From NCBI GenBank assembly GCA_043228905.1, contig JBHGNT010000018.1, positions 13,640,001-13,704,000 of the forward strand: a stretch of DNA of 64,000 nt, written 5' to 3'. The stretch comes from Azolla caroliniana (taxonomy: Eukaryota; Plantae; Polypodiophyta). Below are positions 1 through 43,800 of the stretch, one piece after another. How positions within the stretch are numbered: position 1 is the first letter of the stretch; the number at the start of each line of letters is the position of its first letter. The notes under the pieces are model-generated. The model was given only the letters and a program-made list of their open reading frames with translations. It was not told where the DNA came from and searched no databases. A program made the position numbers and the translations under genes.

Positions 1-2490
1 TTCTCCTCTTCATCCCTTGTACTTTTCTCAAACTCTTCGTCACTCTCCTCGTTGTGCTCCCGCCTCCATCTTCCATCTCTTTCGGTCTCACGTTGCCACG
101 TCGGCCGAACTGCCGAAGTCTCCGGACAAGATGGGGGTAACTAATTTCGCAACGTCTTTCGGAGACTCATCCGGGGCCACCGATCCTTTTAGGGTGTCAA
201 TGGAAAGCATCCGCTCTGTGATCAACCAAGCCCTACCTGGGCTTGATTCTCCAATGTCCAGAGTTTCGGCTCTGATGCCAACCTTGCCGGACTCGTTGTG
301 AACCCTTGATCACCTTCTTCCCGATTCCCGACCTTCGCCTGGCCGGTCTTTCTCCCCATGTAAATGAGGGCGGCTCGTTCCGCACCCTCTCCCATATCAG
401 CACCTTCATGCCGATTCTGGCCCCGGTCGAACAATCCACGACCGGATCGCACTCCACCCGAATTGGAGCACCGCGCGGTTCGGTCCCCGGTCGGGTCGTT
501 TCTTGGTCTCCTCGTCGACCTTCTCGTAGGCCATTTCCCATCCATCTTCGCTGGCATCGTGCCAAGACTCCTCGATACAGTCATCTATCTCCTCGATCTC
601 ACATGGGCGTATGGGCCCGAATGTCGAGTTCTTTGATATCGGTTCTGAGGGCTCTTGTCCGCTCCTTCCTCGTATCGTCTCGCCGATGATTCCCGGTCTC
701 TCGCCGCCACCTTCCTCCTCTTGGGACTCACGCGGGCACTCAGGCCCGACTGCCATCATCTTGGGAGCAAGTGTGGGAAGATGCGTAGAATTGCCCGTCC
801 TATTTACGCCCTTGTCGGTAGCCACCGGCTCCTCGTGGTCGGTGGTCGTCTTCTTACCGATCGTGCAAGCCCCACCTAGGCTTGCTTCTCCAATGTCTGG
901 AGTTTCGGGCTGACGTGCCCGAAATCGCCGGTCCCAACATTCTGATTCTGCGATCGGTATCTCGGCCTTGTCCTTGGCCGTTCTATTTCCGCAAGCTGAG
1001 AGGGCGTTTTGTTCCGCACCCTCTCCCGTGGTACCGTCGTACCGATCTTCTGCCATCTCATGGGGCAAGTTCATCTCCTCAGCGTCGGCTCGTGGCCTCG
1101 ATCTTTCCTTTTCCTCGAGCATTGCCTCGAGAGCTGCATACGCCTCCACAGTCCTGGCCCCGAAGCCGAGCCTTGCCGACTCTCTTTGCCGTTCGGCCTC
1201 TTCCCGTTGTGATGGCGCGCCGTCACGTGCCTTCCTCTTAGCCTTCTCGGCTCGCTCGTCATCTAGCCGTTGGCATACTCTTCCGACCTTCGACCAGTCC
1301 TCGGTAAGGTCATTCACTCCGTCATCGTCTTCGAGCTCAACCCCGATGGCCTCCCGTTCCGCTCGGTCGATCGACCTAACGAACAACAGGACTTTGTCCG
1401 CCCCCACCAGACCTTGCTCCCGCTCTGGAAGTCGAGCAAGTCGTCACTCGAACTCTCGGAACGCCTTCGTTGCGCTCCGGTAGGTCTTCGCCGATGCCAC
1501 CCATTGGTCGAAGCCACGTCGTCCCCAACTCTTCCGACGTCCTCCATATGCCTACAGGAGCGCCTTTTCGAAGGCCTCCCACGAACTATGAGCTTCTTGG
1601 AGCTCCTTCACTTCCACGTGCATACGGACAACGACGACCCGACAAAAGAACTCCAGCCTCAACGCCTCGTCTACATCTCGTTCCTCCATTTCCGCGTTGT
1701 AGGCTTCCAAGTAGAATGGGACTTTGTCCCCGTTGAAACAGCCGACTCTTTCAACCACTCGCTTAGTAGCTTGTTGCGCCGTCCCCCTTCTTGTTGTTGC
1801 TCGTCCAAACTCCCTCACCGCTTCGACACAAAGTTGCGTGAAGTCGTCTTCTTCCAACTCCATCCTCCCTTGCTGCCCTTCACGTCGGGTTCACCAAATA
1901 TGTCACGTTGTTACACGCGAGTGCGTGTAGAAGGGGCGGGACCATGGGGGTCTCAGACGAGGTAGAAAAGGGATGCCAAGAAACCCGACACCGGACACGA
2001 CTCAGATGCAACCGAACACGAGAGAGAGAAAGAGAGAGACAAAGGAGAGGGAGCGTGTGCGTGCGACACCGACTCTTATGCACAAGAAGCAAGGGGTTGT
2101 GCTTCCGACACAACCAAATACACCAATATGCACACACGGATACGAGTATGTATATTACAAGGGAAAGAATACATCCCCGGCTTCGAGCCGGACCAAGGTA
2201 GGTTAGGTTACAATAGCAGTCTACTGCCAAGCCGCAGATCGGGGGAGCTCTCGGGCTCGTCACGCCGAGTGGGGTCTTGCACATGAGACCAAGTAGAAGC
2301 AAACCCTAAACAGACATGAACTCTCAACCCATACGATGACGAAGAAGAAGAAGAAACTACCTAACCTAAATCTAACAGTATACCCTCCTAACTCAAAATG
2401 GGCAACCCTTCTACAAGGGACCATCCCTTCCTTTTATAGAACAAGGAAAGAGATGCATTACAATGTGGGATAAATCCCTTATTACATGAG
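1..2490 (-). mobile_element. Ty3/Gypsy-like LTR retrotransposon 5' portion (truncated 5' LTR, tRNA-Trp PBS, broken gag-like ORF)
   Basis: LTR edge TGTCACG at 1901, with PBS at 1879-1896 next to it. Gag-like ORFs 1552-1863 and 406-1407 follow on the minus strand. The LTR sequence clearly resembles the solo LTR at 28589-29359. Confidence 0.8.
1879..1896 (-). promoter_or_regulatory. Primer-binding site complementary to tRNA-Trp 3' end
   Basis: Plus strand TTCACGTCGGGTTCACCA matches the 3' 18 nt of plant cytosolic tRNA-Trp(CCA) as I recall it. It lies 4 nt from the LTR terminus. Confidence 0.8.
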
Positions 2491-2499
2491 AAGCTACAT

Positions 2500-5385
2500 T
2501 TTTCTAGCTTGGCATAAAGACCATTCTCGTGGAGTCGTTTTAGTACTAATAGTACATGAGAATCATGCTATACCTGGGTCTTCGAATAAATCAATAGATC
2601 ATCCAGATAGATGATCAAACAGATATCCAAGAGGTCTCTGAATATATCATTTGCCATGTGTTGGAAGACTGCGGGTGCATTGGTTAGACCGAACGGCATA
2701 ACAATATATTCGAAATGCCCATACTGCGTGCGAAATGCAGTCTTCCATTCATCTCCCGATTGGATGCGCACGAGGTTATACGCTCCTCGTAGATCGATTT
2801 TTGTAAAATACTTGGCACCATTAACTCGCTGTAACAAACTTGATATAAGAGGAAGTGCATACCTATTCTGGATGGTGACTTTATTCAAGCCGCGGTAATC
2901 AACGACGGGACGAAGTGAGCCATCTTTCTTCTTGACAAAGAAGATGGGTGCACCGGCCGGAGATTTCGAATGACGAATAAACCCGCTTGCCAAGTTCTCC
3001 TCTATGTAGGCTCGAAGGACTTCTAACTCAGTGGGTGACAAGTTGTAAATTGGTCCCCATGGTGGCTCTGCTCCTGGTTGTAAATCGATGGGACAATCAT
3101 AAGGACAATGATGAGGAAGAGTGCCAGCCTTTACCTTGTCAAATACATTGGCATAAGGATGATATTTCGCCAGAAGTTGCACTAAGGATTCCTCCTTGAT
3201 AGTGTTGGAAGGATGTATTGATATTGCAAATAGGAACATTACCTCCTTGTGTCCTTCTTCGCGTAATTGACGTAGTGAAATGGTCGAAACTCGATAAGTA
3301 GATTCTTGGGGTTGTCGATGTCGGACTTCTCTTGTTCTCCAATCTATGGCTGGATTATGTAATTCAAACTAAGGTAATCGCAGGACAATGGGATGCTTTG
3401 GACTACGAATTATATTAAATGCTACTACACACCCTAGGACAACTTGAATGGGTTCTGACTCTTCTACAATATTCTCGGAAGCGATGGGACGACCATCAAT
3501 GAATACTACAGATGTCTTAAGGATATCTGAGAAGCTTGGGCAAACTTTCGATCCATGAAACAGGAATTAGCTCCAGAATCTAGAAGTGTTAGGACGTGTA
3601 CTGGGGGAGTACTTTTAGTACTAACCATGACTTGGGCTAGGAACACGTTGCTAACTTGCTTGGAGGGAATGGAACCACTAATGGGTTGTACAGATCTAGG
3701 GTTGTCCAACCAAACGGCTCCTATTTTGGCTGGACTCGATCGTTTAACTCTTCATCTAATTGACTAAGGATTTCAAATTTGTTTGAGATACTTGGCCTAT
3801 TAGTACTATTAATACTATCAGACACTCCTAAGGGAAGAATTGACTCGGGTTTAGTACAGGCTACGATTTGATTTACCTGTCTTCTTGGCCTATGGGGACA
3901 ATTGATTGCGATATGCCCCGGTCCACCGCAATAAAGACATAATCGATTTGCACGTCGTCGTTGCTTTTCTTCTTCCGATAACGGGCCACGTCGACGCATG
4001 GTGTCGATCTTCATCGGTGTCGGAGTATTTGCTTGAGTTATGTCTCATGCAAACGGTTTAGCCGGGACTGAGGCGTAAGTGGGCTCCGGCCTAGAGCGTG
4101 GTATTTGTAATTGACGTTCCGAACGCCATTCGAAAAGGCGGTTGTCACATCGGACCGCTCGACTGATTGCCTCCGTAAGAGACTTTGGTTCTTCGGGGAA
4201 GGTTAGAAGTAGATCCTTGACATCGTTTCGCGGGCCATAGCGAAATTGCTCCATTAGTGCCTGATCATCCCAGGGGATATTTGAAGCGAGTAGATGGAAA
4301 TCCGCCGCGTAGGCAGAGGCTGGATGATCACCTTGACACAATCGTCGGATTTTGTTGATCGCCATCTGGATGTTGTCTGTATCTCCAAAGCAAGCTTTAA
4401 ACTCACTAATAAAGTCTTCAAAGTTATTAAGTAAGGGCGATTGTTTTTCTAGAAGCGGAGCAAACCATGCCAAGGCTAAGCTGCTAAGCAACGTGCCTAT
4501 TAGGTCGACTCGGGATGCATCAGTGGGGTATCGAGAAGGATGCATTTGAATGACTAAGAGTACCTGATTGAGGAATCCCCTAAATTGTGACCACATTCCA
4601 TCAAATTTCACAAGAAGTCCAATCTTGGGCTCTTTATGAAATCCGTGGGGACTTGATCCTTGTTGTTGCACACGTAACGCTAACTCCCCATGTTGCTGTT
4701 GCAATTCCTCATGTTGTTGCTACGTTTGCTATTTTTCTAGGGCGATTTGTTGAAGATCCCCTAACAACCGTTGGTTTTCTTGTTCCAAGGCAACAAATTT
4801 TTCTTTTAGACACTGTAGCTCGGAGAAAACGGATTGGTATTCTTGAGCGCTAACAAAAGCCATTGTATAGAAAAAGGATAAGAGGATGAGGGAAACCAAA
4901 AGAAAGACTAGAGAGGAGAAATTGGTTCAAACTGTCAGGAATAGTACTAAAATAGAGAGAGAATTAGTACTAGAGAAGGGAAGTACTATTAGTACTAAGA
5001 GGAGGGGAGGGGACTACGTAAGACTCCCGAGAGGGAGGAAATAGAAGAGGAGAGAGAGAGAGATATAGTGAGGACAAGAGAGAGAGAGATTATGATAATA
5101 GATGATATATTATAGGAAGAGTAAGTACAAGATGGCTATGAGGCTTAAGACTGGCGTTGAACCAATTTGGTTCAACATAATGCCTAGTGCCTTCTTTTAT
5201 AGTGCTCTCAAGAGTAATCCTGAAGCTTCTAGAATGTTCCAGAGAAATCTGAAATATACATTAATTTCCTATAATAAAACTTAAATGAAAATAATATCCT
5301 ACATAATACAATAGATGGTATAATGGCCAAGAGCTCAACCCATATAACATAAAGTCATGGGTTTGAGTCTTGCCATATCATGACA
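2500..5385 (-). mobile_element. Tf1/sushi/Tcn1-like chromovirus (Ty3/Gypsy), 3'-truncated: 5' LTR, gag, zinc knuckle, protease, RT
   Basis: Gag 4045-4704 has an in-frame TGA and continues into the [14 protein letters not shown] knuckle (3721-4014). Protease LLDSGA is at 3506-3709. RT at 2568-3239 has [27 protein letters not shown] and YLDD. LTR TGTCAGGA..TCATGACA is at 4933-5385 (far end less certain). Confidence 0.9.
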
Positions 5386-23599: not shown

Positions 23600-25080
23600 T
23601 TTTATCATAGTTTGATACAACATCAAGGATAGAGGACATGAACATGACTTCTTCACAATGTATGGGGGACATTGATATGGAAACAATTGCTCCAAATAAG
23701 ACAAAATTATATTAGAATGCCATGGCCTAAGTAAAGAAATATGATAAATGTTGGTGATGTAATGCAATGGTTGCATGTAGTTGACCATCTTGCTCGTTGG
23801 AACATTAGTGTCCTATTTGGATGATAGTGAATTGTAAACATGCATTTTCAAAGTCGCTTTTACCAGAGTTGATGGGCCGAATAGGAGTGAAAGATGCTTG
23901 GTATGTACTAAAAAAGACTCAGAGTTCGCTAAGCTTTTCAAGAGTAGGCTACAATAGTATAAATGACTTTTGCATGTCTCACATAGACAGAATATACATA
24001 AGCTCGGAACTAGAAAAATATGGCAACAATGTTGAAATCATCGCTGGTTCAGCCTACTCTGATAATATGCATGTTAAGATTACATTAGTCAACTAGAGGA
24101 GGCCAGAAAAAGACTACAACTTGAGGATCCACAATAAGCTTTTGAGGTTGCAGAGGTGGGAAGGAAGATAAGGAGAATATGGGCAAGTAATCCAGTGGGT
24201 TGTGGTGCACTTGATAAACTTAGAGGGAAGATTATTGAAACTTCAATGTATTTGCATGCGAAGACTAAAAATAGAATTTTGAGGTCTAAGGAAAGAGAAG
24301 TGAGATTAAGAAGATCGATAGCAGATGCCCAAAGAATGCTTCAGAAGATCCCATGTGTACTTGGTCTAGAGCAACTCTTGAGGTTGCTAGAGAAATGCTA
24401 CAACGGTTGATTGTGTCTAGAAACATGTCAGATGTTATTCAGGAGTTCAGCGGCATGGTGGAGCAAGAATGGGGATAAGGTAAACCAACAATTTTTTAAG
24501 TATAAAAAGTCGAAAACAAACTGTAGCTACAAACTTAAGTTGATTAAGGAGGATGGATCATTGTCGGAAGATGTATCGGAGATCATGAAGGTGGTCACAA
24601 CACATTATTGTGGGCTATAATTCTCAAACAGTTATAGTATCCTCGAATAGCCTACTCTAAAAAAACTTGTATGGGAGGGAATGCCACAAAGAATTTCAGA
24701 GGTTGCACAAGTTAATCTATCAAGGCCACTCTTGGAATAGGAGGTGTCAGATGTTTTGGTGGGTATATGAAGAGCGTCTTGTCCAAGCATCAACGGATTA
24801 TCAAGAGAATTTTTTGAAATTTTTTGGGAAGTGATGAAGATTAACTTGGTTGATGGTCTAAATGAGGCATGGGATGTTGGGTGCTTGATATTTCTAATTC
24901 CTAAGGTACATGGTCTAATAGGAGATGCAAGGCAATGGAGACCGAGGAAGGCAAAGTTGTGGTGGTTGTTCAAACTAGGTCTAACATTGAAAGAACGGGC
25001 TAACATGGAGGACAAGGTGGCCTGCGCCATAATGAGGGCCTGATCAAGTGTAAGAGAAGGTGGCTTGTAAGAGACCACAA
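23600..25080 (+). mobile_element. Degenerate L1-like LINE ORF2 fragment (endonuclease C-term to RT start)
   Basis: SHIDRIYIS and YSDN (RID/SDH-like), WSKNGDKVNQQFF (W..GD.N..FF) and PSINGLSREFFEIFW (PGPDG..EF..W-like) appear in broken frames. Confidence 0.7.
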
Positions 25081-28079
25081 CGCAACCCTCAAAGCCTAGG
25101 TGAGGTATGCGACAGACTAGCGAGGGTTAAAGAAATCAGCCTCGGGAAGGGGCTGGACTCTGAACCAGTGTTCATAGTCACATATCTCTAGTCGGACGAG
25201 GAGATGTCCTTGATCACCCTCCTCACGGAATTTAGCGACGTGTTCGCATGGTTGTACGTAGATATGAAAGGGGTTTCGGCTGAGGTCGTCACCCATAGTA
25301 TCCTCATGCGAGCCGATGCCCGCCCAATCCGATAAAGGCCACACCCAATGAACCCCAACTACGTCCAACAAGTAAAAGCCGAAATCAACAAAATGTTAGA
25401 TGTAGGCATCATCTACCCCATCGAACGAACCACTTGGGTCTCCCCGATCGTAGTCGTCCCGAAGAAAAGCAGCCAAATCCGCATGTGTCAACTACCGCCA
25501 AGTCAATGAAGCCACCATCAAGGACAACTACCCGGTACCCTACATTGAGCATTTACTTGGAAGAATCGCGGGAGCCGAAGCTTATAGCTTCATCGACGGG
25601 TTCTCGAGGTACAACCAAATCTCGGTGGTGCTTGAGGATCAACACAAGACAACCTTCGCCACCGAATTTGGTACGTTTGCATATAAGCAGATGCCTTTTG
25701 GGCTCACAAGTGCCCTGAGCACCTATCAAAGGGCGGCGGACCGTATCTTCACGGCAAGGTTACAACAAGGGGTGGAGTCCTATGTCGACGATTTATGTTG
25801 CCATTCGAAATGGCATGACCACTTGGCACTACTCCGCTTGACGTTCAAAAAATGCAGGGCCTATCAACTCTCTCTCAACCCACTCAAGTGTTAGTTCTGG
25901 GTCAAGCACGGATTAATATTAGGTCACGTAGTGTCCCGACATGGGATCTCGACCAACGAGGCAAAAGTAAAACTCATCCTAGACATGCCACCTCCCGCGA
26001 ATGAGAAACAACTACAAGGGTTCATGGGGTACACGAGTTATTATAGACGCTTCATCAAGATGTTCGTAGACAAGGCTAGATCAGTCTACGCCTTGCTAAA
26101 GCAGTACACCTAGACTAAAGAGTGCACCTGCTCATTCAAGCTCCTGAAAGAGTGCCTAACTAAGGCTCCCATCCTCTGATCTCCAGACTAGACCAACGAA
26201 TTCCACATTCACACTGATGCCTCCGCCTTCGCAATCGGTGCAGTGCTAGCTCAACCCGGTGAAGGGGCCCTTGACCTACCGATCACCTTGGCTAGTGGCC
26301 AACTGAACGCCGCCGAACGAAATTACTCCACGACTGAGCGAGAAGCTTTGGCCATGGTTTACATCGTGAAAAAGTGCCGACATTACCTCTTGGCATCACG
26401 TTTCTCATTTTTTGTAGATCATCAAGCCCTCCTCTACTTGGTCAACAAAACTCACGCCACGGGATGCATATCCCGATGGATCGTAACGTTACTCGAGTTC
26501 GACTTCAAGGTGGTGGTGAGAAAAGGAAAAGACCATGTACTCGCCGATCATTTCTCCCGAATACCAAACGGAGAAGAAGCCACGGGCATTGACGACGAAA
26601 CACCAGATGCAACATTATTCATGATCGACAGGTCTGTACCATCATGGGCATCAGACATTGTTCGCGCCTTAACCGAAGGGGTATCTTTCCTAAAACAACT
26701 AAGTCGGGCACATGCACTTGTCTTGTTAAGGAAATGTGGCCCCTTCACGATGCTCAGAGGCAACTTGTATCGAAGAGGGAACGATGATGTCCTTCGAAGG
26801 TGTGTGCCGAACCATGATATCATCGCCATCCTCAAACAAGCTCATTGCGGCAACGACAACAGTCATGAGGTCATGAGGTCAGCACACGCAAGTTCCTCCA
26901 GTCCGGCCTATGGTGGCCAACACTATTCAAAGACACATATGAGTATGTATGCCGATGTGATGAGTGCCAGCGTTTCAAACATCCGTTGAAAGAGGATTTC
27001 AACACATTAAACCCGGTGGTGGCATGGCAACCGTTCGAGAAAGGAGGTATCGACTTTATCGGCCCAATCAGCCCAACCTCCAACGTCAATTGATACATAA
27101 TAATTGCCACTGACCAGCTACCAAGTGGGTGGAAGCTAAAGCTTGCGTTAATGCTGACGCACGTAGCACCACCAAATTCCTATACGAAAACGTCATAACG
27201 CGGTTTGGATGTCCGCTCGAGATCATTAGTGATCAAGGCTCTCATTTCCTCAACGAAGTGATAGCACATCTACTAGGCGAATTTATGGTGACACACTACA
27301 AGAGCTCCCCTTATTACCCTTGGTGCAACGGACAAGCGGAAAGCACGAATAAGATGTTATGCGCAGTGCTCACAAAGATAATCGCCGCTTCGCGGTCTGA
27401 TTGGAGCACCAAACTCGAAGCGGCATTGTGGGCTTTCCGCACTTCCTACAAAGTCGCAACTCGCCACATGCCATTCAAACTAGTATATGGATAGGAAGCG
27501 GTATTGCCCATCGAGTTCCTTGTCTCCAGCCTCTGGATAGCCGTACAAGAACGATGGGACGGGGACCCCCTCCCATCACGCCTAGAGAACCTAGAACGGT
27601 TGACCGAAACTCGCCTTATCGCATTCCAAGCACTCTTGACAGAGAAAGCCAATGGAAAGGCGTGGCACGACAACAAAGTAAGAGATAAAGATCTCGCTGA
27701 AGGAGACATGGCACTCAAATTCTCCTCTCAACGGCACAAAAAGAAGCTCAAATTACGGGGTGAAGGCCCATATGTGGTGTCAGAGATTACCAAGATAGGA
27801 GCATGTCGAATACGCACACTCGAAGGCCTCCACATCCCAGGATTCATCAATGGGAGCAAGCTCAAACATTACTACATACCCCTCACCCTTGAAGCCCTAC
27901 TCACAGCTCGACAACGAGAAGTGGAAGCCAAACTTAAGGCATCCGAAGGCCAAATGGCCCGACTAGAAACTGACCTCCGCAATACGCAAGCAAAATTGAA
28001 ACTACAAGGGGACACCCACCTGGCAACCATGGCTAAGGCGGTCAACTCTAATGATGGGACGAAGCAACTACCATGCGTC

Positions 28080-28350
28080 ACCGACGGCGTACCTTTAACA
28101 GCGGTAATCGACACCGGAGCATCACTAACACTTTTCTCCTTCGAAACATAGGGACGTTTAGGTCACCCAGACCTTGAAATATGCAATGACAACTTCCGTG
28201 GCTTCGATGGGTCCACATCATGTTGTCTTGGAACCTTCGTGTGTAACATCAAGATAGAATACAACGACCACTCAATTCGAGTTCGGGTACTCCCACCCGA
28301 AGTGATGTAAACCCAATGCCTCCTCGGTTTTTGATTAATGTCACATAAGC
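28080..28350 (+). pseudogene. Retropepsin-like aspartic protease domain downstream of integrase
   Basis: In frame with the integrase C-terminus: AVIDTGASLTLFS..*GRLG..NFRGFDGSTSCCLG..*TQCLLGF*, with three in-frame stops. Confidence 0.75.
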
Positions 28351-28588
28351 GAATGTCTCCTGTCACCAAGCAAGAACATTGTCTCCTTCCAAACGGAAAA
28401 TGGGGTGAGGTCCGAGAGACTCGTTACAACAACACTCGAATCACGTCCCACCAATCTCGATGAGCTCCAAAGTGCAAAACCGCCCAATCAAAAGGAACGG
28501 GCACACCCACCGGCCATCCATGACTAGAGCAACGCTAACATCAGAACAAAGACACCCTTGCCACGCAAATGGGTGAACATCTACGCAA

Positions 28589-29359
28589 TGTCGCGTTGTT
28601 ACGCGCGTGCGTGGAGAAAGGCGGGACCACGAGGGTCTGGACTAGGGAGTGACGGAGCGTAGGAAGTCGTACTTCACCATTTTTGGGGCATCCCAAGAGC
28701 ACACCGGAAGCAACAGAAGGGAGAGAGAGAAAGAGAGGGAGCGCGCACTTAACACCGACTCACGCACACACACGCACACACACACACAGGCCGATCCGAC
28801 TCACGCCCTTATGTACAGGAAATGTAGGAAAGGGGAAGCACCGGACACCAACAGAGACGCGAATATACACGAACAGACGCAAATGTATATATATAAAAGG
28901 AAGAATACATTCCCAGCTTCGAGCTGGACCTTGGTAGGGTAGGTTACAGCAGCAGTCTGCTGCCAAGCCACTGTCCGGGGAGCTCTCAGGCTCGTCACGC
29001 GGAGCGGGGTCTTGCACAGGAGACCTAGTAGAGACAACCCTCAACGGTCGACCTCCCCGCCAAGAAAAAGAAGAAGAAAACTAACTCTAAACCTAATGGT
29101 ATACCCTCTGACACAAAACGGGCAACCCTTTCACAAAGGGCGCTCCCTTCCTTTTATAGAACAAGGAGAGGGATGCGTTACAATGTGGGATAAATCCCGA
29201 CTTACAAGGGATCGCCTGTCCCGACTTGACTAGCCTTCGGCACCATAAAGGCGCCCTTGTTATTCACACTAAATGTACAAGGTTGAGCACACACGCTGCA
29301 CCCCGCCGATGTAGCCAATGTTTCTCGATTTCCGCCTCTGGCCGAAATTCTTCACGACA
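28589..29359 (-). mobile_element. Solo LTR (same family as LTR at 1901) inserted in the Gypsy post-protease coding region
   Basis: Termini TGTCGCG..CACGACA. Flanks GCAA/GCGA form a 4-bp TSD with one CpG-type change. Removing the LTR restores the frame KWVNIYA|IFAEGP. Confidence 0.85.
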
Positions 29360-30835
29360 GCGATTTTCGCTGAAGGACCATGCCGCGGAGAACGTGCTAT
29401 TTGGCGAGTCAGAAAAGCAGTCACAAACGCTCAAGGTTGGCACAAAGGTGCCACTAGCTTCTGGGTCTCGAAACGAAGCTGGCTCCCCGCCCGCGACCGT
29501 ACCGCGACTGCACGAGACACCCGACCACTGCGCACATTGGTCAAATACCCCGCCCAGGTTAAGGCCATGGAAATCGACGGGAATAAACAGCTAGGAGGCC
29601 GAACGCTTCACAAGCCCTCCACGTCCCTTCGACAAAAACGTCACGAGTCTCGATCCTTAAAAATATACAAAGACCCTCAGACAACACTCGAACAACACAC
29701 CCCCCACATCCATCCCCTCAAGTCTTCCCGGAAACTCCTAATTCCCCCAAACCCTCACGACACCCCTGGTGGACCCCCGTCCAACCCTACCGTCCGCATG
29801 CAAACCTTGGCCGCCCCAAAAAACTTTTAAACCCACCCCCTACCTTATGTTATCCTGACCATCAACTACTCGACCCGTCTTCTCCCTCGACCTTTGTATC
29901 GCGCCTGGTAGACCATAACACCCCCTCCGGTCTACGTATTAGTATTTCCGATCGTCGAGTTACCCTTTAATTTTAGGGGTACCATGAACGATTATTTTTT
30001 ATTATTTGCAGGTGAGCTATTTTTGGTTCAACTTGTTCTTTTTCGTATTACGTCACATAGTCATTTCGGTTTCTTTAAATCTTCTGTTTTATTTTCATTT
30101 TTGACTGTTTGTTTTTTATCTATAGTCGTCTTGGTTGTTTTATCCTTTGTTTGCGTTTTATTTCCTTGTTTTGATTTTGTTTTCGATTGTTGTTTATCTA
30201 TCAACGTCTCGTCTTTTTTATTATTATGGCTTTCGTGTTTTCCTTGTTTTTTTTTCTTTTTTGTTGTTGTTTTTAGGCTCGTCTCGGTTCACTTTCTCTC
30301 TCTCTCTCTCTCTCTTACTTTGTTTTGGCTGCTTTTCTCTTCTTCCTCCTTTCCCCTCACAACCCTTTCTTCTCCCTCTTTTCCCTCACAACCCTCTCTC
30401 TTTTCTGCAACGTTCTCCCTCCTCCCTCTGCGCTTACGCTCCTGCCCCCGCAGGTTGCATGCTTCCTACCGCTGCCTCGTCTTCTGCACGTCGTGTCTAA
30501 CCACTACTTCCTCCTCGGGTAGGTCTCCTCCTCTGTTTTACTTCGAGCCGCGCCTTGCGAGCTACCTCTTCCTGTTTACATCCACACCTCCTCCTCCTCG
30601 CCTCATGCGTATTACCGCTTCTTCCCTCGGTAGGTCCCACCCTCTATCATCGATTGTTGTGTTTCGTTACTTCGTTATTTTTCTCACCTGCGTCCTCGGT
30701 CCCGGACAACGCCATGCACTTCGCCTCCCCCAGTGGCAGCCATGACGGCAGCCACGTCATTTTCCCACCTCCTCTGGTCGCTGGCAATTATTGGGCCGCT
30801 TTACGCGCGTCCTCGTCGCTTTCCTTTACCACCGC

Positions 30836-31864
30836 TTCGAGGAGTCTAACTCCTCGAACCCCTCCCCACCAGTTCGAGGAGCCTACCTCCTCGAACCTCT
30901 CACCGGTTCGAGGAGCCTAACCCCTCGAACCCCTCCCCACCGGTTCGAGGAGACTAACTCCTCGAAACCCTCACCGGTTCGAGGAGGCTAACTCCTCAAA
31001 CCCCCTAACCCCGGTTCGAGAAGGCTTACTCTTCGAACCCCTCCCTGGTTCCCCCCCCCCCACCGGTTCGAGGAGCCTAACTTCTCGAAACCCCCACCGG
31101 TTCGAGGAGACTAACTCCTCGAACCCCCTAACTGTTGGGATTTCGGTCCCTCCGGATGGGATGTCCGGAGATGAATGACGGCAAGCCCGGTTGCGGTTAC
31201 GGAGCCGGATGATGAATACCCCGGCTACGGAGCCGGATGATGAATACCCCGGCTACGGAGCCGGATGATGAAGACCCCGGTTACGGAGCCGGATGACGAA
31301 TGTACCCGGAGAGAGATCCGGATGCGGGGACATATTTGTGAATATGTTTGCCAAGGGCCCTTGAGGCTATATTTGTAAATAGCCCGAAAGTCATATGTGT
31401 ATAAATATGACTTAGGGCAAATAGTTTTTGTTGTTGCTCATTTTCTGTTTTCACTGAGAGGAAGCGAAGTGAGAGCAGCCGAGAGAGAGATAGAGCGCGA
31501 GAGAGACGAAGAGGTAGACGCCTCTGTGTATTTCCGCCGCCTGTGGCGAGGACAGCGAGCTCAAGGTCGTTGCCTTGCAGCTCGCCATTGTATATTTCTC
31601 TGTGCATAGTTTGGTTTGGAGTCTCGCACTCCCGTGGTTTTTCCCGTATAGGGTTTTCCACGTTAATTCCTGTGTATCGCGTCTTTCTCTGTATTTCCTA
31701 TTTTTCTGCTGCATTGATCCGCGATTACTCGGTTGTGGCCCAGTGGTGAAGGTGAATCCAAGCGTTGATTCCCGACACTAACCCCGGTTCGAGGAGGCTT
31801 ACTCCTTGAACCCCTCACCGGTGCGAGGAGACTTAATCCTCGAACCCCTCCTTGGTTCGAGGAG
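30836..31864. repeat. Array of ~11 palindromic hairpin units GGTTCGAGGAG-nnTAA-CTCCTCGAACC with C-rich linkers, split by a solo LTR
   Basis: Units start at ~30836, 30872, 30905, 30942, 30976, 31013, 31065, 31099, 31786, 31819 and a half unit at 31854. Confidence 0.9.
31133..31777 (+). mobile_element. Solo LTR with perfect 5-bp TSD (CTAAC) and internal 30-bp tandem repeats
   Basis: Termini TGTTGGGA..TCCCGACA. CTAAC is at 31128-31132 and 31778-31782. About 4 copies of GG(T/C)TACGGAGCCGGATGATGAATACCCC lie at ~31195-31310. TATA-like TATAAAT is at ~31400. Confidence 0.92.
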
Positions 31865-32023
31865 AGATTCCCTACACGCTAAAATCATCGATCCCTCAAC
31901 CCCTTCAAATCCCCATCCTACCTCACTGCAGTACATCATTCTTGTAAATAGGTCCATACAATACGCACGAATTCGTACACCCCATTTAACTATACTAATC
32001 CTTTTCCCCGCAGGTTGTAATCA

Positions 32024-33306
32024 ATGGCATCCACTCAATTCATCAAACTCCTCCACGCTTACTACCTCGACGCCGGTTGCGGTTCCTTGGTCATTCCAGC
32101 TGAGTTCAACAACACCCGATGTACTTACCGGGTACCCACAACCACCACGCAACTCAAGTACCTCGAACCCAACATGTTCGACACCCTTTCCCGACTCGGC
32201 CTCAAGTTCTTCCTCGGGATTGGCCCATGGGGTGTACTGCCCGAGCTGGTCAACCGGTTCCTCGTAGGGTACAACCCCGACATTGGCCACGTTCACGGAT
32301 ACTCCCTCCATCGAATTCCAATTCACCGTCGCCAACGTTTGCGCTACGCTACATTTGCCGACGGATGGCATCCCCTTCCGTACCACGAAGACCCGTGGTG
32401 TCGTCCCTAGCATCATCCCCGCCGTCTACTCCGAATATTCTTGGCGTGAAGGTTGGCGTTACACCGAAATCCCCCCTCGACCATTGTAGCGCAATTGCCT
32501 AGATCGGTGACACCGCATCTACCGATTCCACCGCCCACATCACCAACGAGTTCGTCAAGTGGGCACATGATCCTCAACCGGTCCAGTGGGCTCACGAGCT
32601 TGTTTGATGGGTCAGAGAATGGCAAACACGGCCCAAATCGACAGTCAATTTCGCGTGGTTCCTCACTCGTTACCTATGCGCAAAGTTCAACATCGGGTCT
32701 CCAATCCCTCCCTTCATACGCTGCCAGGAACGACACCGCAAGATAACCGTACCAGGCCAACACGAGCGTCTCCGCATCCCCGAACGTGACTTCTTAAGAC
32801 AGGTACACCAAGGTGAACGGTAACGCCCACCAGCGCACAAACAACCCCAAATCACCCACGTGACGACTGAAGATACCCTTGATACCCTTGAGGATATCAC
32901 AAATCGTGTCAAGGAATTCCAGACACGCGAATTCACCCCCACCGAAATCCAGGTCTTGTCTACTACATTCCACTATGTGTCTCATTAGACCATGGCCACG
33001 ACCCCTCGTTCCCGCAGCTGCACCACAGAATCAATCCTTCGTGACCTACGGAACCCGACGGCCCCACCCCTACCAACCTCGCTAACCTCTCTTCCCCGAG
33101 AATCCCCACCTGCCTCCCCTGGCACAAACAACCAGCCACCACCGCCCATGACCACCGAAGACACGCCGCAACCTCGACCTCGTAAGCTCACTCGTCACAA
33201 TGCCCTTGAAGCCGAAAACTCCCTTCTTCCTCCTGAGAACCCCAACCCACCATCATCCCCAAGCCCGGTCATCACCCCTCAACCCACCTTTGCATTACCT
33301 AGATGA
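32024..33306 (+). pseudogene. Extra ORF 1 of the Gypsy element (frameshifted, env-position)
   Basis: ATG is 10 nt after the acceptor CTAATCCTTTTCCCCGCAG (AG 32012-32013). Fragments MASTQFIKLL.., ..PVQWAHELV*W..VNFAWFLTRYLC.. and a Pro-rich tail end at TGA 33304-33306. Confidence 0.55.
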
Positions 33307-36255
33307 CAACCCCACCACCACCCCTACCAGTCTTCATTCCTTGCTCTACCCCATCCATTGCCGCAACCGGCCGCCCTAACCCAACTCCCGCCACCCCCCT
33401 GAAACCATTAGTCGACATGGTGGCCGACATCCTCAAGATGACTTCTATCGTGAATCGTCGCCTACTCCAAGTCTATGTGCGGGCCCAACAGACCGCCACC
33501 GACCAGCAAGAGGCCTCTACACGGAATGAGGTCTTGGCCGCCAAAGTAAGGAACACCCACCATACCAACGCGTGCCAAGCTGCCGCCTATGACCTCCTCA
33601 AGAAAGAATTGCTTGCGGAACGAACCTGACACCAACAACTCGCCGATGAGTTCCACCAAGCCCGGACAACATGGCACCATGACCAGGAACGCGCGGCGCA
33701 AACACACACCGAACTCTCTGCCGAGTACGTATGTCTCACCACCCAACACCAAAAGACGGAGTCCCACTTCACAACGATGACGGCTGACCTCTCCGCACGG
33801 TCCGAGGCTCTGGCCAACACCACTGCCACAACTCATAAACTCACAAGTGAGATCGCAACCCTCAAAGCTGAACATGACGCTATGGTCCAACAAGTGGAGG
33901 TCGCCAATGAACAGAACAGATGCCTCCTCATCAAACACCGCCGCCAGTGCGCCGAACTCGAGAAGGACATCATCCAACTCTGCACGACCAAAGCCGCCCT
34001 CGAGCACACCCTCAGCCCAGGCATGACTGGCCCCTCCACCATTCAGACACCTCTCCTTACTCCGCTCGACACTCCGAATATGATTAAGGTGCTCTCGGTG
34101 TATGTGACCTCGACATCCCTGCTCTCCGAACTCTTCACTGCACCACGTACACCACGTAAACTTCTAGCCCAAGCCACGTGCGTACTTCGGTCGTTGGCCA
34201 CTACGCGTCGCGTGTTCTTCGACAAGACCACCCTGCCCACTCCCCCCCCCCCCCCCCCCCTCGATCGGCAGACATTCATCCGAGTACTCTCTATTTTGTT
34301 TCTCGAAGGCATGGCCTACCTCCACACAGTCATTGCCCTAGACTTAGACATCACCGATTTGATATGTTTCGCCTACCCTTTCGATGTCATGATGCAAGTC
34401 ACCAAAGACCAGCTGGCCCAACTCGTCACCACGTTGGTGTGCTTACACCGCATCGCCGACACTCTCACCTGCACCCTGCTGGAGAGTGCTACTACCTACG
34501 TACCCCCTTTTGGTTTCCTATGGTTAATAGGCGCTTGGCAAACCACCTGGGACCTCCGGGTTCGTACTCACATATTCAGCATCGAATGTGCCACATTCAA
34601 CTGGCCCACTGATCTTGAGGCTGTCAACATACAGGAGTTAGCCCTATACCTCGACGTCTCTCGCGAGTATCAACTTATGACTTTCGATGAGGCTCATGCC
34701 CACGCACTCCTACCTCCACACCCCCTTCATTCCCCGCCTGAGATCAACCCGGAGTGGGACCACGACTCACCTGATGATCCCGACAACCAACCACCTCAAC
34801 GCCCTAACCCTACCTCATCCCCGCCTCCAAGCCCTCCCCCCCCACCCCCACCTCCAAGCCCCCCCCCCTCCCCTCCCACCCCCACCTCAGCGAACACCAC
34901 GTCCTCGACCACACACACCCATGTTCGGCGGCGACCCCTTTCGCACACCCCCCTTGGCCCATCCCCATTCCTCCCCACCTCCCACCTCCCACCTCCCCAC
35001 TACCCGACCCTTTCCCCCTCCACACACGAGTCGTCACCCACCCCGATCGGGCATTCAGAGATGCCATCCTCCGTAAAGCCCTCCCTTTCAAGCACCCCCT
35101 CTCACACCTCATGCTCCACCAACAATTACCCCCCCCCCCCCCCCCCCCCATCTTCACTACACCCCTGCTACTACACGACACGAGCCCCGATTCAATGTTG
35201 CGGCATTCTACGCTGATTTGGTTGACCGTTACCAACTCACCCACGACCTCCAAGCAGCTCTCGATTACATCGAACACGGTATAGGTTGGGACACCCACCT
35301 AGATAACCAATTTGCTGCACCCGTCCCCTGGGAGTTTGATTTCTGTGAGACCCCCTACTCCTCACCTGCCTCTACACCTACTACCATGAAGTCGCCTCTG
35401 AACCCCAAGTTGACATCTTCCTTTACCCACACATTTACCGAGATAAGATGTCTACTTGGGTAGCTGCCAACCCCACCTCAACTCGAGGATGGCACCACCC
35501 CGTGGTCGACCCCCTCCTTGAACCACCTAGCATCCAACCCTTGTGGTGTCTCCCCTGGTTCGAGCACGCGTCCTTCCAAGAATGGTTTGCCCTCCACCCT
35601 CCCGAGATGCGTGCCAACCCCACCTTTTTTCCCCTCCCTCGTCGTTGGCCATGACGTGACTTTCAAGCTGCCCAGGCACGCATACCCACCCTCCAGTTCA
35701 ATTGGCCCATGTTTACACGACCCCCGTGCACATCCATGATAGAAGTTAGAATGATCTGGGTCATGCGATGTTTTCTCCGTACGTACCTTAACGTTCCTAA
35801 CCCCGACATTCAAGCCAATCTTCGTTTTCTGCAACTGCTACTCATACTTCTTGACTCTGGCCCTTATGAATCCCGCCCCTTCAAGCAACACAACCACCTG
35901 GCGTGGGGCCTTGTCTTTGATTTGAAATAAAGGCCCTACACGTCGTCAACTGGTCGGCCTCTGGACCTGCGTCAATATGCTCCCCGCCACCTACAAATGG
36001 GATTTTGAAACCATGATTGACACATGTTTTTTTCCCGCTTACATAAGTTTTGGTAGAAACCCCCCCTTTCCCTTCACCGGCAACAATACCTGCACATGGC
36101 TAACTGGCCCCAAGAAGGAATTCTTCATGACGACCGATCAAATGCAGGATATCCGGTTACTGCCACTTAACATCCGTCATCTTTGCCATCATCTTTGCCG
36201 TTGACCACCCCTCGATGAACCCCCCTACTCCATCCTTCTCGCCCTCGATGCCTGA
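33303..36255 (+). pseudogene. Extra ORF 2 of the Gypsy element (coiled-coil, hydrophobic helical domain, poly-Pro, Trp-rich C-terminal fragments)
   Basis: ORFs 33303-33629 and 33777-35216 are in the same frame, separated by a single TGA. Later fragments (35218-36204) are shifted at poly-C tracts. Confidence 0.6.
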
Positions 36256-36308
36256 AGCTCCCCTCCCACAGTGCACCCGAGAGTGTGCACTCAGTAGGTT
36301 GGGGGGGA

Positions 36309-36859
36309 TGTTAAGCCCTTGGTAGCACCACGACCAGTCATGAAGAAGAGCGCATCAACAAGGACATAGTATGGCTAAAGGACCTATGAAGAGGGAATGA
36401 CAAGAGGAAAGAGGGCTAAAGGACATCGAAGTGTGAAAGGTCCATACCCTAAATGTAAATGCTATATAAACCACATGGTGGTGGCTTTGTAAGGGTTCTT
36501 CCATTTGTAAAGATCTCCCTATTGATTAAGAGCTAAGGCTTCCTCTCCTCCTTCTTGTAACCTTTAAGCTTAAGAGAGATTAGTGAAGTGTTTAGTTAGA
36601 GAACACTAATCTCTCTTCATTTGTTGGTGCTAGACCTCTTAGCAAAGAGGGTTAATAAACATATTCATTACTCTTATTGACTATATCCATTACCCTATTG
36701 TCTATGAGAGCGAGCTTGAGAGAGTGAGAGAGATATCGTGCTTAATCATCTATTAATCATTAGCCATCTCCGCCCGATTAGCCATCAAAAGGGTATACGC
36801 CGGTCCAAACTCCGCAAATGACATCGAGGAGTTAACTCCTTCGATACATAGATCTTACA
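36309..36859 (+). mobile_element. 3' LTR of the Gypsy element
   Basis: Follows the G-rich PPT, has TG..CA ends, TATATAAA at ~36463 and AATAAA at ~36654. Confidence 0.8.
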
Positions 36860-37504
36860 CAGAGAGCAACATCAGTAGTAGCCACAACAACAGAAGCAAC
36901 AACAATCGAAGTAGCAGCAGCAAAAGCCGATGGAACAACTACCCGATGAACCGTTGGAACCCCTGGACCAGAGTATTCTGGACATTCTGGAAGATGAGTA
37001 AAGGGGCTAACCCGTGGGTTCGACGTACAAGGTATTGTCCCACGGGCGTGCCATGTGTTGGCCGGTTAGGGCAAAGTATGAAAGGGGAGCCGGTTTTCTA
37101 ATAAAGGGAGGTGTAATTAGAATTACTTATTATAATTATAAGATTGGACAGGCGGACCCAGAATCAATATTCCGATCCGGATCTAGATAGGTTTGTAGCT
37201 AGTTGCCGGTTGGCACCGGTTTGTAACACAGCCGGATACCTATAAAAGGATCCAGATATGATGTAACCGAAGACAGATAATTAATAGAGAAGTGTTGCTA
37301 TTTTCATATCTTGTCTATCCTGTTATTTCCATTCTGTGCTTAATGATGTTGATTCTACACGTGTAACTAATCGATCCGGATACGGATCGGAGAGGGTCGG
37401 TTCTGTGTTACGCGTAGTCTTCCCATTCCTTACCGTACCACCCCTTTGGTGAAGTGTTCTGGAAGGACACCCTGTGTTAGTGGCTTGTCCAGCCCAGGAT
37501 TAAC
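36860..37504 (+). mobile_element. Probable remnant of another LTR element (PPT + LTR)
   Basis: Purine tract AAAGGGAGG then TGTAATTAG at 37112, and TATAAAA at ~37241. The right end is uncertain. Confidence 0.4.
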
Positions 37505-40833: not shown

Positions 40834-43800
40834 TGTTAGAGTTAATATGCGGAAGCGTATGACAAACCGGCTCAGCCGGATACCAACAAAACGTAGAGAA
40901 GAAGGTTTAATGGAGACATTACACAGAGAGTACATGGGAGAGACAAAGAGAGCAAAACATAAACTAAATTCAAAAAAAAAAATGCTACGTAATAAGCTGG
41001 ATCCGTAGGCCTCTAACGGCCTACCGGTTTCAATCTGATTCGGCTCCTGGTTCTGGATATCATCTAGACACCGATCTGGCTCTTCGTTCCGGATACCGAT
41101 CTGGATCCAGTTGAGCTTGCTTGCTCAACACTCCCCCTCAAGCTCAACGTGAGGCTGGATCGTGGTGTCAATGTCTACAGTAGCCGGTCCTTTCCTCTGG
41201 CTCATTATGGCGTCTTATCGCCTTGCTCGCGCTCCTTGTCCGGTCCGGTTACGCGTCCCACGGCCCGTCCGGTTCTGCGCACCTCGACCTCCTTGGTCGG
41301 CTTGTCTGCTCAGCAGACCTATCTTAGCTCCTTCTCTGCTATGACTCCGGCACTTGTCAACCCATCAGTTCCTCCATATCGGTGTCAATTCCACTGCCTT
41401 CTCGTTTGCTTGGCCTTTAGTTGATCTGGCTCCTCCGAATGAAATTGTTGAACCGAATTGGCTTCCTCCGATTTGTTCCAGCTCTTGTCCGAATCAGTTG
41501 CCTCCGATTCATTCCGGCTCTTGTCCGAGTTGGTAGTCTCCAACTCGTCTTCCGTTTTCAAGCCCTTCACCACATTAGACCACATTCGGGTCTTGGCCTT
41601 CTTCCGGTCGGCTCTGTCCTTCTTGACTCTGTCGCCGTTGCCGCATGCTCCGACTTGCTCGGATATGTTGACTTTTCCAGTTGAATCAACTTCCTTTTTC
41701 TTCTTATCTCCCCCTGTCTTGGTTCGTTCCTCTTTCTCAAAAAAAAAAAATGCTACGTAATAAGCTGGATCCGTAGGCCTCTAACGGCCTACCGGTTTCA
41801 ATCTGATTCGGCTCCTGGTTCTGGATATCATCTAGACACCGATCTGGTTCTCCGATCCGGATATCGATCCGGATCCGGTTGAGCTTGCTCGCTCAACACT
41901 CCCCCTCAAGCTCAACGTGAGGCTGGATCGTGGTGTCAATGTCTACAGTAGCCAGTCCTTTCCTCTGGCTCATTATGGCGTCTTATCGCCTTGCTCGCGC
42001 TCCTTGTCCGGTCCGGTTACGCGTCCCACGGCCCGTCCGGTTCTGCGCACCTCGACCTCCTTGGTCGGCTTGTCTGCTCAGCAGACCCATCTTAGCTCCT
42101 TCTCTGCTATGACTCCGGCACTTGTCAACCCATCGGTTCCTCCGTATCGGTGTCAATTCCACTGCCTTCTCGTTTGCTTGGCCTTTAGTTGATCTGGCTC
42201 CTCCGAATGAAATTGTTGAACTGAATCGGCTTCCTCCGATTTGTTCCAGCTCTTGTCCGACTCAGTTGCCTCCGATTCATTCCGGCTCTTGTCCGAGTTG
42301 GTAGTCTCCAACTCGTCTTCCGTTTTCAAGCCCTTCACCACATTAGACCACATCCGGGTCTTGGCCTTCTTCCGGTCGGCTCTGTCCTTCTTGACTCTGT
42401 CGTCGTTGCCGCATGCTCCGAATTGCTCGGATATGTTGACTTTTCCAGTCGACCCAACTTCCTTTTTCTTCTTATCTCCCCTTGTCTTGGTTCGTTCCTC
42501 TTTCTCTCCGGCTCCTTGTCTAGTGCCATTACCCGTTCTCCCCCTCAAGTGTGGCACGTCGAGATGTTGAATGTCGAGCATCTTCGAAAAGTGTTGCAAC
42601 TTGTCCGATCCGAGCGGCTTGGTGAAGATGTCAGCAACCTACTGAAGTTCAACTTCACTGCTCAAGACCCGCTCACGGATAAAGTGCTAATGTACTTCAA
42701 TGTGCTTTGTCCGAGTATGGAATACAAGCTTCTTGGCGAGTTGTATGCTGCTTACATTGTCGCAGTAGATCAGGATCGGGGTCGGCACCTCGATCCGGAG
42801 GTCTCGCAGCAGTTGCCGAAGCTAGATGGATTCACAGGTGGCAATGGTAGCGCCCCGGTACTCAGTCTCAATGCTCGAGAGAGCCACTTTTGGCTGTTTT
42901 TTGCTGCTCCATGCAACAGTCGCGCTACCAAGAGAGAACATATAACCGGAGGTGGATCGGTGATCCGATGCATCACCAGACCAGTCAGCATCGGTATATC
43001 TGACTAGTTTCCCAGTTATACTGTGTCGGTATAATAGTCTCCAGTCCTTCGTGCCACTCACATATCGCAATAGTCGATGCGTGCACTGAAGGTGCTCCAT
43101 GGTTGGATTCTGCATAAACTAGCTGATCACTCCAACCGGATAACTGATGTCGGGTTGGGTGATTGTCAAGTAGATAAGGCTTCAGACAGTTTGTCAAAAC
43201 CGTTTCTCATTGCAGGCCGGTTCGGAGTCGGGACGTAGCTTTAGGTTGCGGTCTAGGGGTGTGGAGATCGGTCAGCATTCCGTCATGCCGAACTTGTACA
43301 ACATATTCAACACATAATGGTGTTGTGAGAGCAATATGCTGTCAGGGGTCCGGATCACCTCGATCCCAAGAAAATAATGAAGGTTCCCAAGGTTCTTCAT
43401 TTCAAATGCGTCCGACAACTAGGACTTCACACGGCCGATTTCATGGAGTCCGGGTCCGGTGATGACTTGATCATCTACATATACTAGGATACAAACCGGA
43501 CCGTACGGACCTTTCCGGATGAACAGTGAAGAGTCGGACTTTGAGGCCGCAAACCCCATCTTACGCAACCGTTGCGTGATTTTCGCATTCTATGGGGGGG
43601 GGGGGGGGGGGGGGCTTGTTTCAAACCATAAAGTGACTTTTTGAGTCAGCACACCGCCGACCTGTTCAGCTCCAATTGAAAACCGAGGGGTTGGATCATA
43701 TAGACCCATTCTTCAAGGTCACCTTGAAGAAACGCATTCTTCATGTCCATTTGGTGAAGATGCCATCCCCTTGCCGCAGCAAACAACCAGTACCACACGA

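Follow-up and report, generated by a model that had tools for sequence, protein, structure and literature searches.

A Ty3/gypsy retrotransposon family from Azolla caroliniana with a second protease behind integrase and a candidate protein-motif circuit

Introduction

In OTA-type Ty3/gypsy long terminal repeat (LTR) retrotransposons of plants, extra open reading frames (ORFs) with PMD, Transposase_28 or Athila ORF1 domains are established, as are tandem arrays (PMC6317226), and the role of both has long been an open question (PMC6317226, PMC11963269). Here we describe an element of this kind in a 64,000-nucleotide stretch of Azolla caroliniana DNA (assembly GCA_043228905.1, contig JBHGNT010000018.1, positions 13,640,001 to 13,704,000 of the forward strand), hereafter the window, with positions counted from its first letter. 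The family carries a retropepsin-type aspartic protease (PR2) after the integrase (INT), in addition to the normal protease (PR1) that precedes the reverse transcriptase (RT), and this is its best-supported unusual feature. One large extra ORF, eORF-3'F (hereafter the eORF), lies beside a palindromic motif array in non-coding DNA. While the two-protease polyprotein is well supported, a circuit between the eORF protein and the motif is offered as a specific, testable hypothesis that is as yet unproven.

Non-flowering plants are under-represented in REXdb 3.0 (PMC11358816), and the Tat lineages Z1 and Z2 have been reported from land plants that do not flower (Biryukov and Ustyantsev 2023, PMC10508981; PMC13468544). 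These resemble our element in what is probably an OTA-type RT, the lack of an additional RNase H (aRH) and a native RNase H (RH) with its D-E-D-D residues intact. In the accessible descriptions, by which the comparison was made, they are plain Gag-PR-RT-RH-INT elements with no mention of a second protease, an extra ORF or an array. Athila, Calypso and Diaspora (PMC6317226, PMC1142308) are alike in a primer-binding site (PBS), putatively of the tRNA-Asp type here, a long 5' leader and a sense ORF between INT and the polypurine tract (PPT); in Diaspora and Calypso the tRNA-Asp PBS lies 5 bp after the LTR (PMC1142308). Ogre and Retand (PMC6317226, PMC11963269) have a comparably long region from pol to the 3' LTR with a PMD or TRP28 extra ORF and a family-specific tandem array. 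However, they carry aRH, and the Retand ORFs are antisense, whereas the ORF described here is in sense orientation and no aRH was found; the array here is also palindromic, with a half-site that is found again in the 5' leader. For Retand TRP28, regulation through DNA binding has already been put forward (PMC11963269).

A more distant parallel comes from VANDAL elements, whose VANC proteins carry DUF1985; the 9-nt motif that VANC21 binds has multiplied as tandem copies within introns and upstream regions (PMC5735166). PMD is reported to be structurally similar to the DUF1985 of VANC, and the MAIL2 motif is palindromic (bioRxiv 10.1101/2024.09.27.615353). The likeness to VANDAL/VANC and to MAIL1/MAIL2 consists of a short tandem motif in non-coding parts beside an accessory gene and of a weak DUF1985 lead. 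It is offered as an analogy. VANDALs belong to the DNA transposons and MAIL proteins are encoded by the host, whereas the present element is an LTR retrotransposon. A 2026 preprint on transposon-encoded regulators (10.64898/2026.08.24.746577) mentions neither retrotransposons nor LTRs in its accessible part.

Layout of the element and its relatives

The original prediction was made from the window sequence alone; Pfam confirms RT, RH and INT remnants (RVT_1, RT_RNaseH, rve). The pol remnant occupies 25055..27875 (+), starts in the end of the PR1-RT linker, has its YVDD motif at 25781, and aligns by tblastn to the intact protein P0010 at 79-87%, with 78-87% amino-acid identity of RT, RH and INT to intact relatives. 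The window copy is dead, with ~21 stops and ~11 frame changes over 14 aligned pieces. As had been predicted, it is decayed and lacks its 5' half (gag, PR1 and the 5' LTR are absent) while retaining a PPT (36296..36308, +) and a 3' LTR; homology to the family begins at 25055-25060 by blastn to loci L001-L005. The 3' LTR starts at 36309 as proposed and ends at 36861 instead of 36859 (553 bp, +, TG...CA, TATA box at 36463), and it is 78-85% identical to the LTRs lying ahead of PBS and gag in L001, L003 and L005. Of the 8.4 kb between INT and PPT in this copy (~8.5 kb in the original prediction), 1.4 kb consists of two nested solo LTRs, leaving a native distance of ~7.0 kb.

Relatives were collected by a search of long proteins with the post-INT region, which returned one cluster (P0005; 22 members, 15 of them examined), and by a scan of metagenome contigs, which returned 24 loci. 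No relative was found among the viral contigs searched. Pieced together from overlapping relatives, the layout is very probably LTR, PBS, leader array, gag-PR1-RT-RH-INT-coil-PR2-tail, spacer, array, eORF, PPT, LTR. L002 links pol to the array, L011 links PR2 to the array, and L005 runs from the eORF end through the LTR into gag-pol. P0011 (pol) and P0021 and P0035 (eORF halves) each lie on a 13,843-bp contig, which we infer from the equal size to be shared, and all 30 bins are covered in three DNA runs. Two nested insertions and a missing 5' half could speak for a chance chimera of unrelated insertions at one locus, which the original prediction had tied to other copies lacking the INT-to-PPT region. 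Other copies do contain PR2, the array and the eORF, and the junctions in L002, L011 and L005, the 13,843-bp contig that presumably holds both pol and the two eORF halves, and the 30 of 30 bins covered in three runs make a chimera extremely improbable.

The second protease

The protease predicted after INT is present and in the same frame. PR2 spans 28053..28410 (+) with DTGA at 28110-28121 and is pseudogenised in the window; with stops read as X, it matches gag-asp_proteas (PF13975) at 29.9 bits against a cut-off of 28.2. It is separated from INT by a putative linker in the INT frame (27876..28052, +), judged by eye from the translation to be a coiled coil, and followed by the gag-pol C-terminal tail (28411..29920, +; ~240 aa in relatives), recognised by tblastn of 28330-28590 and 29360-29916 to P0010. 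This tail had been read as further coding sequence; it is indeed coding, but is not separate, being the end of the gag-pol ORF split by a 771-bp solo LTR.

Both proteases occur in one ORF in 4 of the 15 listed members of the P0005 cluster (P0005, P0010, P0011 and P0013). The other 11 are fragments, of which P0008, P0012 and P0018 include PR2 and the remaining eight end short of it. The complete members, P0010 and P0011, are each 2,553 aa long and read Gag-PR1-RT-RH-INT-coil-PR2-tail; the stop-free loci L001-L003 also hold both proteases in one ORF. Among the 24 loci, a protease profile matches at the PR2 position in eight (L001, L002, L003, L005, L006, L010, L011 and L012); L007 and L015 stop at the INT end, and the others are distant or short of the post-INT region. 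Because the distant L013 (47% RT identity) has PR1 only, despite 3.4 kb after INT, PR2 is a trait of this family and not of all relatives. Within P0010 residues ~430-670, Gag has four motifs that by eye look like Cys/His knuckles.

PR2 shares with retropepsins (PF13975/PF13650) the DTG motif, the downstream LLG and the domain length, and departs from them in being the second copy within a single polyprotein and in its position, which follows integrase and a putative coiled coil. By sequence, DDI1 is the closest protein of solved structure (E 0.007). The original prediction had proposed measuring the ratio of nonsynonymous to synonymous divergence (dN/dS) across copies, and for PR2 this gave values indicative of purifying selection: 0.34 (0.16-0.75), 0.22 (0.12-0.39) and 0.25 (0.15-0.40) in three pairs (Nei-Gojobori, bootstrap 95% intervals). 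Of the copies concerned, L010 is itself partly decayed. PR1 gave 0.02-0.03 in the same pairs, and between L001 and L003 the Gag core, PR1, RT, RH and INT all gave 0.01-0.03. The coiled-coil linker stood at 0.06-0.13 in pairs of L001, L003, L006 and L010 with appreciable divergence and at 0.39 with the decayed L005. PR2 is an old domain under relaxed purifying selection, constrained far less than PR1.

How PR2 arose and what it does can be weighed from the same data. PR1 and PR2 are only ~27% identical, so PR2 has been kept open for a long time; they align over their length with a score of 112 against a shuffle maximum of 61. As the similarity of their flanks is not significant (p 0.24, 0.35), PR2 may have arisen by either duplication or capture. 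We lean slightly towards a duplicated or captured protease that is catalytically competent and helps to process the C-terminal end of the polyprotein. A recombination-born duplicate, tolerated at the polyprotein end and slowly decaying, would fit the dN/dS of about ten times that of PR1, the lack of PR2 in L013, the full-length alignment with PR1 and the altered catalytic motif of L010, itself a partly decayed copy. Such a vestige is nonetheless unlikely, since none of the three bootstrap intervals includes 1, every stop-free copy seen retains DTG and the downstream LLG, and the low identity to PR1 speaks for a domain long kept open. The remaining probability falls to a non-catalytic role.

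Between L001 and L003, PR2 and 50 codons around WVNIHA (window ~28560-28588 and 29360-29480) have a synonymous divergence of 0.15-0.22, compared with 0.47-0.88 in the rest of pol, and identity is 98% over the 50-codon segment. Either subfamily recombination or overlapping constraint may account for this pattern. Separately, one contig in each of the runs X1 and X2 joins the pre-RT linker to the PR2 start (window 25084 to 28046), omitting RT-RH-INT; the short side of the junction is just 24-26 letters. These contigs might represent a non-autonomous derivative in which PR2 and the eORF are retained.

A second or duplicated protease after integrase in LTR retrotransposons was not found in the literature searched (mostly outside subscription journals, and with the supplement of PMC13468544 excepted). 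Such cases may have been overlooked, because at least one screen for acquired domains removed protease matches by design (PMC9289625). The original prediction had called the combination possibly undescribed. In the literature searched this may hold for the second protease; extra ORFs and 3' repeats are known in OTA elements.

The extra open reading frame

Where two large extra ORFs had been predicted, there is one sense ORF at 32024..36297 (+), broken in the window copy and intact in relatives at 1,332 aa (P0060) and 1,429 aa (P0038). These two proteins tile 32024-36291 with no gap, so the ORF is one gene; searches with two separate pieces of it also converged on a single protein, P0021. The protein consists of a ~330-aa N-terminal domain, a proline-rich linker, a ~200-aa coiled coil, a ~230-aa domain, a second proline-rich linker and a ~380-aa C-terminal domain. 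Between P0038 and P0060, identity is 77-86% in the coiled coil and the three globular parts but 57% in the proline linker; for more distant relatives it is 64% in the N-terminus and 63% in the third domain. A profile search with the N-terminus found 20 relatives among 1.84 billion representatives, all unnamed, and the 14 of these scanned have no informative Pfam family.

The original prediction had suggested a retrovirus-like lineage. The eORF protein has no transmembrane segment, with a highest 19-residue hydropathy of 1.35 in P0060 and 1.28 in P0038, and extra 3' ORFs with tandem repeats are ordinary in OTA elements; the suggestion is not supported. An envelope identity was likewise rejected, there being neither a transmembrane segment nor a Pfam match to ATHILA.

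AlphaFold models of the protein were poor (mean pLDDT 47 and 43), except for the coiled coil (pLDDT 72-92). Fold searches with the N-terminal model returned nothing from the PDB, where the top VIA match (Z 7.6) was to generic helices and Foldseek had none at E 0.001, nor from viral models, and are uninformative because the model has a pLDDT of 47. A profile search of PDB sequences gave no match, and Atlas gave no usable match for the C-terminal half of the eORF protein. By eye, the N-terminus resembles PMD-type N-termini. L013 has its own sense extra ORF (L013:5059-7850), with coiled-coil stretches, directly after INT. Its N-terminus looks similar to that of the eORF by eye, but hhalign gave E 0.04 and a probability of 1.3%, and the profile missed it.

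The eORF ATG is preceded by a branch point, pyrimidine tract and 3' acceptor-like site at 31993..32013 (+), ending 11 nt before it, as had been predicted. A candidate 5' splice donor, G/GTAGG, lies at 30516..30526 (+), ~320 nt upstream of the 3' array. The donor-like site has a like context by eye in the window, L011 and L002, although MAFFT does not place the three in one column. The candidate donor and acceptor predict that the 3' array lies within an eORF leader intron. It is slightly the better bet that the eORF has a spliced message of its own, from which it is translated and whose leader intron contains the array. The extra ORF of Athila4 and Bagy-2 is expressed from a spliced message. 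One putative RNA run gave only short or diverged pieces, mostly nested repeats and LTR, and has no bearing on expression.

Between the gag-pol tail and the candidate donor is the predicted T-rich spacer (29990..30420, +; 59% T), T-rich then CT-rich and similar in L002 and L006, which may be the end of the gag-pol message, an internal promoter or both. An AG/GT site at 30005-30018, readable as acceptor and donor, stands just before the T-rich part; it is not in L002 or L006.

The motif arrays

The hairpin array named in the original prediction is a tandem series of the palindromic unit TTCGAGGAG-N5-CTCCTCGAA at 30834..31880 (+), with ten full units and a partial one, eight before and two plus the partial after a nested insertion. 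The array pattern has 11 matches in the window, all within the array, against 0-3 per shuffled 64 kb (20 shuffles). The same 3' array is present in L002, with 7 matches, and in L011, with a single match where the contig ends; there the units mostly have an A-T pair in place of the G-C of the window. Copies of the array occur in all four sequencing runs examined (two of which are one sample).

The 5' leaders of L001, L003 and L005, from PBS to gag, contain a second array with the same TTCGAnGA half-site. This half-site occurs 8, 11 and 7 times in the three leaders, respectively, and 15 and 17 times in two 3' spacers, where shuffles average 0.2-0.6. Elsewhere there are none in two LTRs, one in the eORF and 3-4 in the 7.6 kb of gag-pol. 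The element thus has, like VANC-type systems, a short tandem motif in its non-coding regions. The leader copies are nearly all direct repeats in L001 (7+1) and L005 (7+0), so what the two arrays have in common is the sequence and not a long hairpin. With direct repeats in two of the three leaders, a DNA sequence motif fits better than a shared hairpin.

The arrays might instead be slippage-born tandem repeats of the OTA type, with an unrelated function of the eORF, for example particle-associated or in host interaction. Family-specific arrays whose function is unknown occur in roughly half of recent Retand elements (PMC11963269), the number and order of units differ between copies here, and arm covariation does not rise above shuffles (46 of 500 attain the score). 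Against such neutral repeats, the 8-nt half-site clusters in two distinct non-coding regions and in no other part of the element. The loops are variable, but the CpG-containing core is near-invariant across 18 units of three copies. We regard the neutral reading as unlikely on balance.

Another possibility is that the arrays act as RNA hairpins in the full-length transcript, in packaging, dimerisation or export, bound by Gag or the eORF protein in a Rev/RRE-like manner. The 3' arrays fold with z-scores of -13 (window) and -14, two leader arrays with -6 and -8; 93% of arm cells are paired, and pair 8/20 is seen as G-C, G-U and A-U. However, change on both sides is confined to a single pair, involves the two commonest transitions and is no more than in shuffles. 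The direct repeats of the L001 and L005 leaders also speak against a hairpin role, as does the lack of any Rfam match within the array (three weak chance matches fall inside the nested LTR). We judge RNA hairpins to be decidedly improbable.

The array arms (window 30834-31846) resemble TTCnnGAA with one mismatch. TTCnnGAA is the unit consensus of the heat-shock element, and from this resemblance a host factor could bind the array.

Classification

The Gag-PR-RT-RH-INT order without a chromodomain (Pfam, P0010) fits Ty3/gypsy OTA, with PR2 and the tail added after INT, as do the extra ORF and large non-coding regions. Identity of the P0010 RT, counted by hand against one reference per lineage (PMC11963269 supplement 2) with no tree, is ~52% to TatII, 47% to TatIII, 44% to TatI, 41% to Athila4-1 and 37% to Selgy. 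Placement with Phygy or Selgy was rejected, as the RT is unlike theirs. No second RNase H family was detected in P0010 at E up to 5, nor in the eORF proteins, and by eye the native RH of P0010 keeps its four acidic residues (D-E-D-D). The aRH that characterises the REXdb Tat clade (TatI-III, Ogre and Retand) is thus lacking. On these characters, the element is OTA-grade and Tat 'zero'-like, in the sense of having no extra RNase H. A PBS-like site begins 6 nt after the LTR in L001, L003 and L005, and we presume it to match tRNA-Asp. Unlike Athila, the window family has an RT nearer to the TatII, TatIII and TatI references than to Athila4-1 (hand counts), an ORF of 1,330-1,430 aa with no transmembrane segment and no ATHILA Pfam match, and a second protease.

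Nested insertions and neighbouring sequences

Solo LTR 1 (28589..29359, no strand assigned; 771 bp, TG...CA, 4-bp target-site duplication with one mismatch) was delimited by its ends and by relatives that lack it: L001-L003, L006, L010 and L011. It is skipped by contigs in two of the four sequencing runs (X1 and X5) and is 78% like an LTR at window 1901-2486. That LTR belongs to a chromovirus at 1901-4720 (minus), with an RT like Tcn1 references by eye; Tcn1 has been reported from mosses and club-mosses (PMC6317226), so that this neighbour hints at a host among the non-seed plants. Solo LTR 2 (31133..31777, no strand assigned; 645 bp, TG...CA, target-site duplication CTAAC) sits inside the hairpin array and belongs to an unrelated family with a 28-bp tandem repeat, as judged from its ends, depth and TRF. 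This family is extremely abundant, with a summed depth more than 100x that of the pol region.

A LINE-like remnant (23800-24945) lies upstream of the truncation point and a high-depth LTR-like fragment (36950-37500) just past the 3' LTR, both called by eye and depth. At 40972-42506, beside copia-like remnants, is a 767-bp direct duplication of 97% identity.

Discussion

From the observed layout, motif distribution and conservation we infer a circuit in which splicing, fold, binding and effect would combine. The eORF protein would bind the TTCGAnGA arrays as double-stranded DNA through its N-terminal domain and oligomerise through its coiled coil, the sole confidently modelled part. Once bound, it would keep both transcription units and promoters of its own family active, opposing host silencing family-specifically as VANC does. 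We give an even chance to the N-terminal domain being a remote relation of the PMD/DUF1985 folds that oligomerises through the coiled coil. That the protein binds the arrays as double-stranded DNA and opposes silencing in the VANC manner is somewhat short of an even chance, though it is the likeliest of the mechanisms considered. The analogy with VANC, drawn in the original prediction, has two pieces of indirect support: one half-site is arrayed both in the 5' leader and in the putative intron ahead of the eORF, and the eORF N-terminus gives a weak DUF1985 lead. The complete combination, a VANC-like circuit of a giant PMD/DUF1985-type protein with leader and intron arrays plus a two-protease polyprotein in which PR2 is active and pairs in cis with PR1 or has its own substrates, is a tentative proposal that, taken whole, is distinctly unlikely.

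Several observations weigh against this proposal. None of the eORF proteins scanned (5, 7 and 14) has a Pfam match to PMD, DUF1985, Transposase_28 or ATHILA. Atlas places DUF1985 at 0.84, rank 10 of 30, for the eORF N-terminus, which the tool rates as a lead only; with 126 of 256 features shared, a score of this size is attained by shuffled proteins in one case out of three. An acceptor-like site at 30453, considered and rejected, is not kept in other copies and is a warning on splice calls made by eye. The relatives, short-read contigs from co-sequenced plant DNA, may be mosaics of copies, and among the DNA records examined the window alone spans pol, array and eORF. Finally, PR2 is the less constrained of the two proteases and is lacking in L013, as discussed above.

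A selected second protease behind integrase is a departure from the standard Ty3/gypsy polyprotein. If the eORF protein binds the motif, VANC-type sequence-specific anti-silencing would extend from DNA transposons to LTR retrotransposons. With an intact natural eORF protein and a sharply defined candidate motif in one family, a direct test of binding would be easy.

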